DNA of 64,000 nucleotides from Escherichia coli (GTDB taxonomy: Bacteria; Pseudomonadota; Gammaproteobacteria; Enterobacterales; Enterobacteriaceae): the NCBI RefSeq assembly GCF_048403405.1, contig NZ_CP183129.1; one strand, written 5' to 3'. The notes beneath the pieces were generated by a model, which ran no database searches, had not been told where the DNA came from, and saw only the letters and a list, made by a program, of their open reading frames with translations. Position numbers and translations under genes: made by a program. This document shows, one piece after another, positions 81-55,603 of the stretch (within the stretch, counting starts at the first letter, position 1; each line of letters starts with the position of its first letter).

Positions 81-367
81 CGAGAATGACTGAAACTGAT
101 CTACTAAAAATAATTCGCCGCATTACCGGAATCAGTCAGCAGCCTGACGAACAGGCTACACAGCCGGACAGCGTGATAGCCGAAAATTACGCGCGTGTGG
201 TGGCTGAGGTGATGCGCCGTGACGGTATTGAGCTTAACGGCGTGGATATGCGCAACATACGAACCAGAGTCCTTGAGTTGCTGGCATACCGTCGCCGTTC
301 TCAACAACGGAGGGAGAGCGCGAAAAATACTTACCAGTGGAAGAAGCCGGAACGACTGCGGCGGTAA
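77..367 (+). CDS. hypothetical protein, 96 aa, basic C-terminus; not recognised
   Basis: ORF-track ORF with E. coli-like codon composition, ATGA-coupled to the upstream frame. It sits where I expect yhdJ downstream of fis; no minus-strand ORF here resembles a methyltransferase. Confidence 0.4.
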   Translation: MTRMTETDLLKIIRRITGISQQPDEQATQPDSVIAENYARVVAEVMRRDGIELNGVDMRNIRTRVLELLAYRRRSQQRRESAKNTYQWKKPERLRR

Positions 368-1148: not shown

Positions 1149-1445
1149 TTAGTTCATGCCGTATTTTTTCAATTTTTTACGCAGCGTACCACGGTTGATG
1201 CCCATCATCAGCGCAGCACGGGTCTGGTTACCACGGGTGTATTGCATCACCATGTCCAACAGGGGCTGTTCTACTTCAGCCAGTACCAGCTCATAGAGGT
1301 CATTCACATCCTGACCGTTCAGTTGAGCAAAATAGTTCTTCAGTGCCTGTTTAACCGAGTCACGCAGGGGTTTTTGGGTTACCTGATCCTGAGAGTTAAC
1401 GGTAGAAACGGTCAGTACGTCAGAATTTACGCGTTGTTCGAACAT
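1149..1445 (-). CDS. fis: DNA-binding protein Fis (nucleoid-associated global regulator)
   Basis: 98-aa translation [21 protein letters not shown]...[13 protein letters not shown] matches Fis. Confidence 0.98.
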
Positions 1446-43481: not shown

Positions 43482-44609
43482 TTAACGGCGTCTATAGCCT
43501 TCCTCTAGCACCGCCTGTGTTCGAACGAGTTCATCCGCGAGTCGTTTTTCATCAGGTAGTTGCATCTTATATTCGCTCGCCAGAACGGTGTTAGGCAAAC
43601 CAGCCAGTGCATAATACGCTTCGCCGGCTCCTTTCTCTGCACAGAGAACCAGACCGATGGGCGGATTTTCATCCGGTAGTGTCCAGTGCTCTTTGGCGTA
43701 GTTGAGATACATATTCATCTGTCCGGCATCGCTATAGCTGAATTTGCCCACTTTTAGATCGACGATTAGCAGGCAGCGTAAACGGCGGTGGAAAAACAGC
43801 AGATCGACACGAAACCAGTTGTCATCAATGCGTAACCTTCGCTGTCGACCAACAAAGGCAAAATCATCCCCAAGTTCCAGCATGAAATCCATCAGGTGGT
43901 TGATCAGCGCCTCCTCAAAATCAGATTCTGAGTATTCATCTTTCAACTCCAGAAATTCGAGCACAAAGGGATCGCGTATCGCCTGTTGCGGAAGAATATG
44001 CATCTCGGCAGGAGCGTGTTGTTGCAGCATGGCTGATTTATCATGTGACAGTAGTGTTCGCTCATAAAATTGGGTCGCAATTTGCCGCTCTAGCTGGCGG
44101 ACAGACCAACCACAGCGGAGCGTTTCTTTTTCATAAAAGCTGCGGGCGTCAGCGTTTTTAACGGAAAGTAGACGGACGTAGGTGGACCAGGGCAGGGGGA
44201 AAGATTTGGCAGACAGCGTCTGCCAAATCTTTGCCGATGGGAATTCTGCAGACGGTGTCTGCGGCATTCCCAATGGTGTTAATTCGCCAGACACTGTCTG
44301 GCGAATTTCAACATGTTGAAAAAAGAGGTAAAAAAGCCTCATTTGGCGTAAGTTTTTTGCAGAGAACCCACGCTTATACCTTAGACTTAAATCCTTTGAT
44401 AGTCGCTTGATTAGCTGCGCACCATACGCAGCCCTGGCCTCGCCACCTTGTTCAAATTCGACAATTCGTCGGCCAATTTCCCAGTATGTCGCGGTCATCA
44501 GCGCGTTAACGCTACGTACCGTTTCCGTCCGGGCGCTATCGACCAGGTGAATAATACCGTCGTGGATTTGCTGGTAGCCTGTTGAGGTTCTCTCTGAGAG
44601 CGATTCCAT
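43482..44609 (-). CDS. yhcG: DUF1016 (YhcG-family) protein with predicted PD-(D/E)XK nuclease fold
   Basis: 375-aa ORF, N-terminus MESLSERTSTGYQQIHDGIIHLVDSARTE; C-terminal region has nuclease-like D...ELK motifs (IVDLKVGK). Confidence 0.85.
   Translation of the reverse strand: MESLSERTSTGYQQIHDGIIHLVDSARTETVRSVNALMTATYWEIGRRIVEFEQGGEARAAYGAQLIKRLSKDLSLRYKRGFSAKNLRQMRLFYLFFQHVEIRQTVSGELTPLGMPQTPSAEFPSAKIWQTLSAKSFPLPWSTYVRLLSVKNADARSFYEKETLRCGWSVRQLERQIATQFYERTLLSHDKSAMLQQHAPAEMHILPQQAIRDPFVLEFLELKDEYSESDFEEALINHLMDFMLELGDDFAFVGRQRRLRIDDNWFRVDLLFFHRRLRCLLIVDLKVGKFSYSDAGQMNMYLNYAKEHWTLPDENPPIGLVLCAEKGAGEAYYALAGLPNTVLASEYKMQLPDEKRLADELVRTQAVLEEGYRRR
44200..44307. repeat. three tandem hairpin-forming palindromic units inside the yhcG coding sequence
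   Basis: Units at 44200-44232, 44234-44276 and 44281-44307, each with arms ending in CAGAC, a 3-nt centre, and GTCTG; arms differ between units but stay self-complementary. Confidence 0.7.
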
Positions 44610-44792
44610 TATCTGTCCCTTTATATGGCGCTGTGTTGAATAATGGAATCAGCTATACGCCGGGCATCTGCCGGTAACAATCCAGATGTGCGTATTACAT
44701 TGGTTTTCTTCAGATTATGCGAGGCGCTTTCCAGTACGAAAGGAGAATTTCAGCGCCGACTCTTTTCTGAGGAGGCGGCGCTGGGACAGAGC

Positions 44793-46223
<1,431 letters not shown>

Positions 46224-52383: not shown

Positions 52384-54720
52384 ATGAAGCAAATTCGTCT
52401 GCTGGCGCAGTATTATGTTGACCTGATGATGAAGTTAGGTCTGGTGCGCTTCTCAATGTTGCTGGCGCTGGCCCTCGTCGTTCTTGCCATTGTGGTACAA
52501 ATGGCGGTAACCATGGTGCTGCATGGTCAGGTCGAAAGCATTGATGTTATTCGTTCTATCTTCTTTGGTTTGCTGATTACGCCGTGGGCGGTCTACTTTC
52601 TATCGGTGGTCGTCGAGCAACTGGAGGAGTCACGACAACGTCTGTCACGACTGGTGCAAAAACTGGAGGAGATGCGCGAGCGCGATTTGAGCCTCAACGT
52701 TCAGTTAAAAGATAATATTGCCCAGCTAAATCAGGAAATCGCCGTTCGTGAAAAAGCGGAAGCAGAACTGCAGGAAACCTTCGGCCAACTGAAAATTGAA
52801 ATTAAAGAGCGCGAAGAGACACAAATTCAGCTCGAACAGCAATCCTCATTCTTACGTTCCTTCCTTGATGCTTCACCCGACCTGGTTTTTTATCGTAACG
52901 AAGATAAAGAGTTTTCCGGCTGTAACCGCGCGATGGAGCTGCTGACCGGAAAAAGCGAAAAACAACTGGTTCACCTGAAACCTGCTGATGTTTACTCACC
53001 GGAAGCCGCTGCGAAAGTCATTGAAACCGATGAAAAGGTGTTCCGTCATAATGTGTCACTGACCTATGAGCAGTGGCTGGATTATCCCGACGGGCGCAAA
53101 GCCTGTTTTGAAATCCGTAAAGTGCCGTACTACGACCGCGTGGGTAAACGTCACGGTTTGATGGGTTTTGGTCGCGACATTACCGAGCGTAAGCGGTATC
53201 AGGATGCGCTTGAACGCGCCAGCCGCGACAAAACGACGTTTATTTCCACCATCAGTCACGAATTGCGTACACCGCTGAATGGTATCGTCGGCCTGAGCCG
53301 CATTCTGCTGGATACCGAACTCACCGCCGAGCAGGAAAAATATCTCAAAACCATCCATGTTTCGGCCGTCACGCTCGGGAATATCTTCAACGATATTATC
53401 GACATGGATAAGATGGAACGGCGTAAGGTCCAGCTTGATAATCAGCCGGTTGATTTCACCAGCTTCCTTGCCGATCTGGAAAATCTCTCCGCATTGCAGG
53501 CGCAACAAAAAGGATTGCGCTTTAATCTGGAGCCTACGCTGCCATTACCGCATCAGGTCATTACCGACGGGACGCGTTTACGGCAGATCCTGTGGAATCT
53601 CATCAGTAACGCCGTCAAATTCACCCAGCAAGGCCAGGTTACCGTGCGCGTGCGCTACGATGAAGGCGATATGCTGCATTTTGAAGTGGAAGACTCTGGT
53701 ATCGGCATTCCGCAAGATGAGCTGGATAAAATCTTCGCCATGTATTACCAGGTGAAAGACAGTCATGGCGGTAAACCTGCCACTGGCACCGGTATTGGTC
53801 TGGCCGTTTCTCGTCGTCTGGCGAAAAATATGGGCGGCGATATTACGGTTACCAGCGAACAGGGCAAAGGTTCAACCTTTACGTTGACGATCCACGCACC
53901 GTCGGTAGCAGAAGAGGTCGATGATGCGTTTGATGAAGACGATATGCCTTTACCGGCGCTGAATGTGCTGCTGGTGGAAGACATTGAACTGAACGTGATT
54001 GTCGCGCGTTCTGTGCTGGAAAAATTAGGTAACAGCGTTGATGTCGCCATGACCGGCAAGGCGGCGCTGGAGATGTTTAAACCGGGCGAATACGACCTGG
54101 TATTGCTGGATATTCAGTTGCCAGATATGACCGGGCTGGATATCTCTCGTGAACTGACGAAGCGTTATCCGCGCGAGGATTTACCGCCGCTGGTGGCCTT
54201 AACCGCTAACGTGCTGAAAGACAAGCAAGAGTACCTCAATGCTGGAATGGATGATGTGCTGAGTAAGCCGCTTTCTGTTCCGGCGCTAACCGCGATGATC
54301 AAGAAATTCTGGGATACCCAGGATGATGAGGAGAGTACGGTGACGACAGAAGAGAACAGTAAATCAGAAGCATTGCTCGATATTCCCATGCTGGAACAGT
54401 ATCTCGAACTTGTAGGACCGAAGCTGATCACCGACGGGTTAGCGGTGTTTGAGAAGATGATGCCGGGCTATGTCAGCGTGCTGGAGTCGAATCTGACGGC
54501 GCAGGATAAAAAAGGCATTGTTGAGGAAGGACATAAAATTAAAGGTGCGGCGGGGTCAGTGGGGTTACGCCATCTGCAACAGCTGGGTCAGCAAATTCAG
54601 TCTCCTGACCTTCCCGCCTGGGAAGATAACGTCGGTGAATGGATTGAAGAGATGAAAGAAGAGTGGCGTCACGACGTAGAAGTACTGAAAGCGTGGGTGG
54701 CAAAAGCCACTAAAAAATGA
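52384..54720 (+). CDS. arcB: aerobic respiration control sensor kinase ArcB
   Basis: 778 aa: two N-terminal TM segments, PAS, HisKA (SHELRTPLNG), receiver and HPt domains. Confidence 0.97.
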   Translation: MKQIRLLAQYYVDLMMKLGLVRFSMLLALALVVLAIVVQMAVTMVLHGQVESIDVIRSIFFGLLITPWAVYFLSVVVEQLEESRQRLSRLVQKLEEMRERDLSLNVQLKDNIAQLNQEIAVREKAEAELQETFGQLKIEIKEREETQIQLEQQSSFLRSFLDASPDLVFYRNEDKEFSGCNRAMELLTGKSEKQLVHLKPADVYSPEAAAKVIETDEKVFRHNVSLTYEQWLDYPDGRKACFEIRKVPYYDRVGKRHGLMGFGRDITERKRYQDALERASRDKTTFISTISHELRTPLNGIVGLSRILLDTELTAEQEKYLKTIHVSAVTLGNIFNDIIDMDKMERRKVQLDNQPVDFTSFLADLENLSALQAQQKGLRFNLEPTLPLPHQVITDGTRLRQILWNLISNAVKFTQQGQVTVRVRYDEGDMLHFEVEDSGIGIPQDELDKIFAMYYQVKDSHGGKPATGTGIGLAVSRRLAKNMGGDITVTSEQGKGSTFTLTIHAPSVAEEVDDAFDEDDMPLPALNVLLVEDIELNVIVARSVLEKLGNSVDVAMTGKAALEMFKPGEYDLVLLDIQLPDMTGLDISRELTKRYPREDLPPLVALTANVLKDKQEYLNAGMDDVLSKPLSVPALTAMIKKFWDTQDDEESTVTTEENSKSEALLDIPMLEQYLELVGPKLITDGLAVFEKMMPGYVSVLESNLTAQDKKGIVEEGHKIKGAAGSVGLRHLQQLGQQIQSPDLPAWEDNVGEWIEEMKEEWRHDVEVLKAWVAKATKK

Positions 54721-54832
54721 CCCCGGCTAGACCGGGGTGCGCGAATACTGCGCCAACACCAGGGAAATCTTGGCTGCGCCGTAAATTATTATGATGAGTT
54801 ACAAGGGCACAGCACTGTTTTTCAGGCTGCAC
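54712..54832 (-). ncRNA. arcZ: ArcZ small RNA (RyhA/SraH), Hfq-dependent
   Basis: The minus strand reads GTGCAGCCTGAAAAACAGTGCTGTGCCCTTGTAACTCATC...CACCCCGGTCTAGCCGGGGTCATTTTTT, matching ArcZ as I recall it (one possible mismatch near the 5' end). The terminator U-tract overlaps the arcB stop codon. Confidence 0.85.
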
Positions 54833-54949
54833 GCAGTTAAGATAGCAAAACTTAAATGATTTGTTACATGAATCAGTTAAATGTGTGATGCGTAGCATTT
54901 TTATTAAAAAAATTAATGTGTTTCAGTCAATTGCGAAAGGATGATCACA

Positions 54950-55603
54950 ATGAAGAAAATTGGCGTAATTCTGAGCGGATGCGGCGTCTATGACGGTTCT
55001 GAAATTCATGAAGCGGTGTTGACGTTGTTAGCTATTTCACGCAGCGGTGCGCAGGCGGTCTGCTTTGCACCGGATAAGCAGCAGGTTGATGTTATCAACC
55101 ATTTAACGGGCGAAGCGATGACGGAAACGCGCAATGTGCTGATTGAAGCGGCACGAATAACGCGCGGTGAAATCCGTCCTCTGGCCCAGGCCGATGCCGC
55201 TGAACTGGATGCGTTGATTGTGCCGGGGGGTTTTGGCGCGGCGAAGAATTTAAGCAATTTTGCCAGTCTTGGTAGCGAATGCACCGTTGACCGTGAATTA
55301 AAGGCGCTGGCACAAGCGATGCATCAGGCCGGAAAACCGCTTGGTTTTATGTGTATTGCCCCGGCGATGCTGCCGAAAATTTTCGATTTCCCGCTGCGTT
55401 TGACCATCGGTACTGATATCGATACCGCAGAAGTGCTGGAAGAGATGGGCGCGGAGCATGTGCCGTGTCCTGTCGATGATATCGTGGTTGATGAAGACAA
55501 TAAGATTGTCACCACCCCGGCATATATGCTGGCGCAGAACATTGCAGAAGCGGCGAGCGGCATTGATAAGCTGGTTTCCCGCGTGCTGGTCCTGGCGGAA
55601 TGA
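54950..55603 (+). CDS. elbB: DJ-1/PfpI-family glyoxalase ElbB
   Basis: 217 aa from [24 protein letters not shown]. Confidence 0.92.

Follow-up and report, generated by a model that had tools for sequence, protein, structure and literature searches.

The minus-strand feature at the 3' end of arcB is almost certainly arcZ, the gene of the Hfq-dependent small RNA ArcZ, which runs convergently with arcB and overlaps its last 9 coding bases. The arcZ/arcB locus found in the window (the whole 64,000-nt stretch of Escherichia coli DNA that was analysed) is an already known arrangement, so that its reading as such is correct but ordinary and adds nothing new. There is no evidence contradicting the ArcZ identity. 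The coordinates of the features discussed below are collected in Table 1.

Identity and extent of arcZ

A search of the 64-kb window with cmscan (Rfam 15) resulted in a match to RF00081 (ArcZ) running from 54832 to 54725 on the minus strand, with a score of 120.1 bits (E = 6.2e-27; gathering cut-off of the family, 66 bits). The match was untruncated and spanned model positions 1-106 of 106, i.e. the full model, which ends ahead of the 3' half of the terminator and leaves out the last 15 nt of ArcZ. The K-12 arcZ gene (b4450, 121 nt) mapped exactly to positions 54832 to 54712, with an identity of 120/121. The alignment to a curated sequence that the sequence-only reading had proposed as a check thus revealed no substantial divergence from ArcZ. 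Its further statement that the non-coding RNA content of the window is as expected also held, given that ArcZ was the sole gathering-level Rfam match across the 64 kb; apart from such quality control of the non-coding RNA content, the arcZ result matters little.

The gene order, with arcB (+) followed by arcZ (-) and by elbB from position 54950 (+), matched that of K-12, and the arcZ locus was found in 5,416 of 5,426 complete E. coli genomes. The 778-aa open reading frame contained the Pfam domains ArcB_TM, PAS, HisKA, HATPase_c, Response_reg and Hpt, and is named arcB by RefSeq in a virtually identical genome (a single mismatch in 22 kb). Its 3' end reads ...ACT AAA AAA TGA, with the TGA at 54718-54720. 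The RefSeq automatic annotation of that same genome shows no arcZ feature; together with the absence of the last 15 nt from RF00081, this makes the arcB overlap invisible in routine annotation.

Table 1. Features of the arcZ/arcB locus (window positions; ArcZ nucleotides numbered from its 5' end).
Feature	Position	Strand	Basis
arcB coding sequence, 778-aa sensor kinase	52384..54720	+	ORF list, Pfam domains, RefSeq name
arcZ gene, 121-nt primary ArcZ (SraH/RyhA) transcript	54712..54832 (5' end 54832, 3' end 54712)	-	RF00081 match and K-12 b4450 identity
Probable mature 56-nt ArcZ (nt 66-121), the active, Hfq-bound form after RNase E cleavage	54712..54767	-	Motif and PMC5222698
Conserved seed core CCCUGGUGUUGGCGCA (ArcZ nt 69-84)	54749..54764	-	Alignment of 30 sequences and PMC11331407
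arcZ intrinsic terminator stem-loop (ACCCCGG-UCU-AGCCGGGGU)	54720..54738	-	Terminator scan, invariant stem pairs
9-nt arcZ/arcB overlap: plus strand AAAAAATGA, the Lys-Lys-stop of ArcB; minus strand UCAUUUUUU, the 3' tail of ArcZ	54712..54720		Read directly
SNP G5A in ArcZ (A in RNA, T on plus strand), derived minority allele	54828	-	K-12 comparison and genome counts
Putative arcZ promoter: -35-like GTAACA (54862-54867), 17-nt spacer, extended -10 TGCTATCTT (54839-54847), TSS 54832	54839..54867	-	

Terminator and overlap with the arcB stop codon

The only terminator-like site detected within positions 54500-55100 was located on the minus strand, with its stem at 54738..54720 followed by CATTTTTT. 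It comprises 8 pairs (6 of them G-C) and a 3-nt loop, and the stem pairs were invariant across 30 species. In ArcZ, a Rho-independent terminator of this kind and its U-tail form the Hfq-binding module. The 3' end of ArcZ therefore consists of a G+C-rich hairpin followed by UCAUUUUUU, and the final base of the stem is the complement of the last A in the arcB TGA. Within the tail, the UCA complements the TGA stop, while the six U's are templated by the two terminal lysine codons of ArcB. The K-12 annotation contains the same 9-nt overlap (arcZ 3350577-3350697, arcB 3350689-3353025).

The sequence-only reading had placed the arcZ terminator over the arcB stop codon, and the overlap was indeed present, 9 nt long and as in K-12; it had also described the U-tract as complementary to the closing bases of arcB, which was borne out, positions 54712-54720 being the complement of UCAUUUUUU. 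Its claim that the two transcripts necessarily overlap could be retained in part: the overlap of the arcZ gene with the arcB coding sequence is present in the DNA, whereas that of the transcripts is conditional, and would follow from an arcB mRNA that includes the stop codon and an ArcZ that terminates in the U-tract. No plus-strand terminator was detected between arcB and elbB in the scanned interval (54500-55100), and consequently the extent of the arcB mRNA into the arcZ antisense region is not readable from the sequence.

Processing site, seed, internal helix and promoter

An RNase E motif (GA/UUU, the slash marking the cut) was read at ArcZ nt 64-68 (window 54765-54769), immediately followed by the seed. 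Both this cleavage site and the 56-nt active product have been described (Chao et al. 2017, PMC5222698), and ArcZ expression, Hfq binding and processing to ~56 nt are known for K-12 and Salmonella (PMC11331407, PMC5222698). The seed core, which did not vary among the 30 aligned Enterobacteriaceae sequences, has been named as the ArcZ conserved sequence (PMC11331407). In the cmscan alignment, all 8 pairs of the internal Rfam helix (nt 20-27 with nt 53-60) formed in the ArcZ of the window; over 30 species, 92.9% of the cells of this helix were paired, and 2 pairs had changed on both sides.

A simple sigma-70 scan called no arcZ promoter, as the arrangement GTAACA-17-TGCTATCTT matches just 8 of 12 positions. 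The promoter given in Table 1 was instead placed from conservation, the -35-like and extended -10 blocks being kept across 19 aligned Enterobacteriaceae upstream regions, and from the transcription start, which was taken from the K-12 annotation. In this upstream region K-12 differs by one base, at -63, from the window and from 17 other aligned species, suggesting that the K-12 base is the derived one.

Overlap across species and the feedback loop

Hfq binds the primary ArcZ transcript, from which cleavage by RNase E yields the 56-nt 3' species; this form alone regulates targets such as rpoS, flhDC, mutS, tpx and sdaC; at low oxygen ArcB/ArcA represses arcZ, and ArcZ in turn lowers arcB expression (PMC11331407, PMC5222698, PMC4152358). 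In this mutual-repression loop, the 3'-end overlap would make ArcZ a cis-antisense partner of the arcB mRNA. The sequence-only reading had called the locus the established ArcZ/arcB feedback locus. This is accurate for the arrangement, which is documented in PMC11331407, PMC4152358 and K-12, whereas the mechanism is partly established: an overlap of ~10 bases, a Rho-independent terminator, repression by ArcAB and repression of arcB by ArcZ are reported (PMC11331407), but the role of the arcB mRNA as an antisense RNA is 'speculated' in the same review. ArcA-P binds the arcZ promoter region according to that review (PMC11331407), contrary to the ChIP study of Park et al., where no ArcA site was found upstream of arcZ. 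In a plain consensus search near 54833-54950, an ArcA 15-mer gave no match with three or fewer mismatches.

One genome per species was scanned with a pattern made of the seed core CCCUGGUGUUGGCGCA and 3 upstream bases. This resulted in 120 loci, 115 of which had a convergent arcB; overlaps were computed from the first in-frame arcB stop (the true stop of Pluralibacter gergoviae is TAG). An overlap of 9-11 nt was present in 87 of the 115 loci, all of them with ArcB ending in Lys-Lys-stop, and in these species the complement of the stop codon is wedged between the ArcZ stem and the U-tract. The count over 115 species thus quantifies a dual constraint, the Lys-Lys-stop of ArcB and the tail of the ArcZ terminator being the same nine to eleven bases. 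Overlap was absent in 18 of the 115 species, among them Pectobacterium (-184 and -155 nt), Brenneria, Symbiopectobacterium, several Pantoea, Tatumella and Rosenbergiella. Loss of the overlap in Pectobacterium and some Erwiniaceae agrees with the literature.

Among the alternatives considered, the one with most weight, though still rather unlikely, is that the 9-nt overlap does not mediate the feedback and is incidental to closely packed genes or to a hairpin common to both; the effect on arcB would then arise from a longer 3' read-through pairing with all of ArcZ, from transcriptional interference or from indirect effects. The species without overlap are consistent with it, as are the 23 of 27 loci with an overlap of 2 nt or less that keep the UCA ahead of the U-tract: ArcZ and its UCA-U tail remain unchanged in most overlap-less species, and ArcZ itself thus does not require the overlap. 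With no plus-strand terminator after arcB, read-through across the whole of arcZ is also plausible, and the word 'speculated', used in the review (PMC11331407) for the antisense role of the arcB mRNA, points the same way. Against an incidental overlap stand the 87 species that keep the stop complement in place with ArcB ending in Lys-Lys-stop, and the treatment of ArcZ in the literature as a cis 3'-end antisense RNA of arcB (PMC4152358).

The G5A polymorphism in the 5' half of ArcZ

Comparison of the 121 nt with K-12 yielded G5A as the sole difference in ArcZ. The sequence-only reading had noted a 5' end different from the usual one (GTGCAGCC vs. GTGCGGCC) as a possible strain SNP, and the difference proved to be real. 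An exact 45-mer with A was found in 125 complete E. coli genomes and the corresponding one with G in 4,949, out of about 5,400 genomes. Other Escherichia, Salmonella, Citrobacter and Enterobacter carry G at this position, and on this comparative basis G is ancestral and A derived. Nucleotide 5 is not part of the mature RNA but of the 5' half cut off by RNase E (PMC5222698).

Comparative pair counts suggest that G5A, situated in the half of ArcZ that is discarded, is a neutral polymorphism of the lineage. The position is unpaired in the Rfam structure, and in a covarying local 5' hairpin, with compensatory changes in 7 of its 10 pairs, the substitution converts a G·U into an A-U; the resulting A5-U22 is a standard pair, and 7 other species share A-U there with the window, giving 8 of the 30 aligned sequences.

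That G5A is instead functionally different, breaking a pairing between the 5' end and nt 89-94 and thereby altering the fold of pre-ArcZ in ~2% of E. coli, seems improbable. According to this alternative, Hfq and RNase E would release the 56-nt form with a different efficiency, or the seed would be exposed to a different degree within the precursor. Thermodynamic folding does predict such effects: the minimum-free-energy structure takes on another architecture, at -39.7 instead of -42.3 kcal/mol, the probability of pair 5-90 falls from 0.97 to 0.00, abolishing the predicted 5'-3' helix, and nt 79-85 become more often unpaired (probability 0.38, up from 0.18). In addition, GUGCGGCC is kept across several genera although the adjoining 5' sequence varies, and in Dickeya solani a naturally occurring point mutation, located in the 3' part of ArcZ, prevents processing (PMC11331407). 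However, the same energy model assigns a probability of 0.00 to the Rfam helix despite its 92.9% conservation, indicating that the predicted ArcZ fold is unreliable. For the K-12 allele a long-range 5'-3' helix was predicted, but it was rejected as unsupported, as it showed no compensatory change and pair 5-90 was missing in 14 of the 30 species. The location of the SNP outside the mature RNA, the change from G·U to A-U in the covarying hairpin and the presence of A at position 5 in several other genera also argue against a functional difference.

A specific form of this effect has an even slighter chance of being correct, namely that G5A could re-fold the ArcZ precursor, through a modelled loss of the pairing between the 5' end and nt 89-94 together with a tighter local 5' hairpin, and so alter the rate of maturation by RNase E and Hfq or the exposure of the seed, amounting to a lineage-specific shift in the ArcZ-RpoS-ArcB set-point. 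If true, this would be a natural set-point shift in ~2% of sequenced E. coli, including the lineage of this strain. Neutrality of G5A is the reading preferred here.

Coding potential of the minus strand

The possibility that the minus-strand stretch encodes a small protein is practically negligible: a 62-aa open reading frame (54898 to 54710) does cross all of ArcZ, in frame with a GUG at +1 and with no stop within ArcZ, but it was rejected as a protein gene because it would start from an ATG 66 nt ahead of the annotated transcription start, no ribosome-binding site precedes the +1 GUG, and the locus is annotated as ncRNA in K-12. In addition, the 5' half of ArcZ varies freely from genus to genus and contains indels, whereas RNA structure and seed are preserved in the 3' half, which is the opposite of a coding pattern.

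Comparison with known systems

The closest known counterpart is ArcZ of K-12 (SraH/RyhA; RF00081; b4450), which is like that of the window in length, in its neighbours (arcB convergent, elbB downstream) and in the 9-nt overlap with the arcB stop, and has the same RNase E motif, seed and terminator; the single base that differs, G5A, falls in the portion lost from the 5' side during maturation. In other Enterobacterales (Salmonella, Citrobacter, Enterobacter, Yersinia, Serratia, Photorhabdus, Dickeya and others) the 3' half of ArcZ is invariant, as here, and ends in the hairpin, then UCA or UUA, then the U-tract, with the arcB stop inside the tail in the 87 of 115 species mentioned above. The overlap in these relatives is 10-11 nt where the T-run has 7-8 bases, vs. 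9 nt with the six T's found here, and the 5' halves of ArcZ outside Enterobacteriaceae are not alignable.

The locus also resembles convergent genes with a common terminator hairpin, as well as cis-antisense pairs that meet at their 3' ends, in that two convergent units share a palindromic hairpin region. Unlike symmetric bidirectional terminators, the arcZ/arcB hairpin is followed by a U-tract only in the arcZ direction. As in cis-antisense pairs of a small RNA and an mRNA, ArcZ is perfectly complementary to the 3' end of its partner, arcB; in contrast to such pairs in general, ArcZ acts mainly in trans, via its seed.

Identity and extent of arcZ

In the Rfam 15 scan, the sole gathering-level match in the 64-kb window was RF00081 (ArcZ), located on the minus strand from 54832 to 54725 (120.1 bits, cut-off 66; E = 6.2e-27) and spanning model positions 1-106 of 106; no tRNA or tmRNA genes were found across the window. 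The model represents nt 1-106 of the 121-nt sRNA, so the match (54725-54832) takes in neither the terminator's 3' half nor the arcB overlap. The curated K-12 gene (b4450, 121 nt, 3350577-3350697) aligned to 54832-54712 with a single difference, G5A, corresponding to A instead of G at ArcZ nt 5 (window 54828). Based on the Rfam match and this alignment, the coordinates and strand assigned to ArcZ in the sequence-only reading were correct, and the 5' SNP that it had suggested as possible is real.

The RefSeq automatic annotation of a genome that is one base off over 22 kb (L002) has no feature between arcB and the next gene, elbB (window 54721-54949; L002 12722-12950), so arcZ is unannotated in that near-identical genome. 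A mechanical 62-aa ORF (54710-54898, minus strand) reads through ArcZ from end to end, in the frame of the sRNA's +1 GUG, yet it was not regarded as coding, given that its ATG precedes the transcription start and that the conservation pattern is of the RNA type. The stop codon of this ORF reaches just beyond the ArcZ 3' end.

Coordinates of features in the window
Feature	Coordinates	Strand	Details	Evidence
Terminase large subunit gene	window start		last ~80 bases	
Hypothetical ORF	86-367		93 aa	
fis	1149-1445	-		
yhcG	43482-44609	-		
gltD	44793-46211	-		
arcB	52384-54720	+	778-aa ORF	
arcZ terminator	stem 54738-54720, then CATTTTTT	-	8 pairs (6 G-C), 3-nt loop	
ArcZ seed CCCUGGUGUUGGCGCA	54764-54749	-	directly after RNase E motif	sequence
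RNase E motif GAUUU	54765-54769	-	ArcZ nt 64-68; cut after GA	sequence
Candidate arcZ promoter	GTAACA 54862-54867, 17-nt spacer, TGCTATCTT 54839-54847	-		conservation, 19 aligned Enterobacteriaceae

Overlap with arcB

The ArcB domain set was complete (ArcB transmembrane domain, PAS, HisKA, HATPase_c, receiver and Hpt), and the gene is named arcB by RefSeq in the genome with a single-base difference from the 22-kb stretch of the window. Direct reading of the plus strand within 54700-54840 gave ...GCC ACT AAA AAA TGA CCCCGGCTAGACCGGGGTGCGCGAATACTGCGCCAACACCAGGGAAATC..., where the ArcZ 3' tail, UCAUUUUUU, is the reverse complement of the last arcB codons, AAA AAA TGA (54712-54720), and the last A of the stop codon is complementary to the final stem base of the terminator. 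An identical 9-nt overlap is present in the K-12 annotation (arcB 3350689-3353025). The claim that the arcZ terminator overlaps the arcB stop codon was therefore borne out, and the earlier interpretation of the feature as the already known arcZ/arcB convergent overlap is supported. This was the only terminator-like site in 54500-55100, so the arcB-elbB interval has none for plus-strand transcripts; the 9 nt represent an overlap at the gene level.

Conservation of the arrangement

A scan for the 19-nt ArcZ core TTTCCCTGGTGTTGGCGCA in one genome per species (GTDB r220) yielded at least 120 loci, and among the matches listed a convergent ArcB C-terminus was found just downstream of the core in 115 of 120. 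The other five listed were three evidently chance matches in unrelated phyla (Lentzea, Chitinophagaceae and Bradyrhizobium), one locus with a short contig flank, and a second Serratia oryzae site. Overlap length was the distance between the end of the T-run and the first stop codon in the arcB frame. Among the matches listed, it was 9-11 nt at 87 loci (15 + 27 + 45), with ArcB ending in Lys-Lys-stop in all 87, and 1-2 nt at nine, while 18 had 0 nt or a gap, including Pectobacterium (-184 and -155), Brenneria (-85), Symbiopectobacterium (-80) and Chimaeribacter (-58), as well as several Pantoea, Tatumella, Rosenbergiella and Mixta. At one listed locus, from Pantoea sp. 1.19 (L044), the arcB frame enters arcZ by 23 nt and ends with TAG, within the terminator loop, instead of the usual TGA; this length depends on a T7 homopolymer and may thus be a sequencing artefact. 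Judged by these sequence comparisons, the window has the arrangement that is common among enterobacteria.

The triplet ahead of the T-run was TCA at 82, TTA at 31 and TAA at two of the 115 listed loci, and TCA was retained in 23 of the 27 listed loci with an overlap of ≤2 nt (L060, L064, L102, L116, L112 and others). At the RNA level, UCA between stem and U-tract was retained despite the lost overlap in Pectobacterium, Brenneria, Symbiopectobacterium, Chimaeribacter and several Pantoea, and its U pairs with A95 in 30/30 aligned sequences. Since UCA is kept where it is no longer the complement of a stop codon, the ArcZ terminator probably accounts for part of its constraint, which would then stem from ArcZ itself and not from the arcB stop codon.

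The second site in Serratia oryzae J11-6 (NZ_MOXD01000004.1) is an exact copy of the core (L023, 1259-1277), about 150 kb away from the genuine arcZ locus (L022) and with no terminator after it. On the opposite strand, all 19 nt are complementary to the ArcZ seed and the stretch ends 9 nt before the ATG of a gene for an ADP-ribosylglycohydrolase (PF03747, E = 4e-64); the site could be an ArcZ target with unusually long pairing. It could also be a chance match, as are the three clear cases in unrelated phyla. A divergently transcribed 260-aa ORF, resembling a transcriptional regulator, lies beside the gene.

Processing, promoter and regulation

RNase E, with Hfq, cuts ArcZ at the motif listed in the table to give a 56-nt 3' species, to which target activity is confined (Chao et al. 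2017, PMC5222698); in the window this species would map to 54767-54712. From its position upstream of the K-12 transcription start, we infer that the conserved candidate element is the arcZ promoter, which was not called by a simple sigma-70 scan. Phosphorylated ArcA represses arcZ, and ArcZ represses arcB (2024 review, PMC11331407). As caveats, an ArcA site upstream of arcZ was not found by ChIP (Park et al., PMC3798270), and a 15-mer ArcA consensus had no match at ≤3 mismatches within the arcZ promoter.

Distribution and probable neutrality of G5A

The 121-nt ArcZ query (window 54712-54832) was matched in 5,416 of 5,426 complete E. coli genomes and had no match in the remaining 10; one complete genome carried a second, plasmid-borne copy. 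With an exact 45-mer spanning -10 to +35, G5 was found in 4,949 genomes and A5 in 125 (124 with a 61-mer carrying A). Identity to the window over 22 kb reached ≥99% in only six genomes, MS 69-1 and TUM14771 among them; other A-allele genomes are less similar, such as PCN033 (98.9%), so the A allele is older than the clone of the window. Position 5 is G in E. albertii, other Escherichia species, Salmonella, Citrobacter, Enterobacter, Leclercia and Lelliottia, and A in Pluralibacter, Phytobacter and Pseudocitrobacter, among others; on cross-species comparison, A5 is the derived state. A second arcB-elbB intergenic difference was observed at window 54895, 63 nt upstream of the arcZ start (C in arcZ sense vs. 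G in K-12), where the base of the window is common to 17/17 other aligned species and K-12 is the odd one out.

Under the thermodynamic model, the K-12 allele folds at -42.3 kcal/mol with nt 1-6/89-94 and 18-27/79-88 paired, and the window allele at -39.7 kcal/mol with a local 5' hairpin in place of this long-range pairing (P(5-90) from 0.97 to 0.00; P(5-22) from 0.01 to 0.64). The same model gave the Rfam helix (nt 20-27/53-60) a probability of 0.00, which bears on its reliability. The three candidate structures were compared on an alignment of 30 Enterobacteriaceae sequences of the full-length precursor (pre-ArcZ), with 5' ends inferred from the conserved -10 block. The Rfam helix, which leaves position 5 unpaired, was paired in 92.9% of cells, with two pairs changed on both sides. 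For the local hairpin (nt 1-10/16-26), 76% of cells were paired and 7/10 pairs had changed on both sides, with a covariation of 0.151 vs. 0.125 in shuffles (2/500 reaching 0.151) and 0.02-0.08 when slid; its pair 5-22 was G·U in 14 sequences, A-U in eight and non-standard in eight. The long-range helices (82-86% of cells paired) had no compensatory support, and pair 5-90 was formed in 16/30 sequences. Given this comparison, the presence of A in other genera, and the location of G5A within the part of ArcZ discarded on maturation, the substitution is most likely neutral, and a functional change in precursor folding or processing appears very improbable.

Other features of the window

A phage-like element (1-1148) adjoins fis, and the window start falls inside it. 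The hypothetical ORF is followed by ~780 bp of non-coding DNA, and this stretch before fis contains two similar ~38-nt motifs, TTGCTGATATTCCCGATAACGCAAAATTGCGTTGGCTGG and GGTTGATATTCCCGACAGCCCCAAAATGGGTTGGCTGG.

The genes gltD and yhcG are 183 bp apart (44610-44792). In K-12, they are separated by a ~7.2-kb block, gltF-yhcA-yhcD-yhcE::IS5-yhcF, of which yhcA-yhcD-yhcE::IS5-yhcF is a chaperone-usher fimbrial cluster, whereas the strain of the window is without the entire block.
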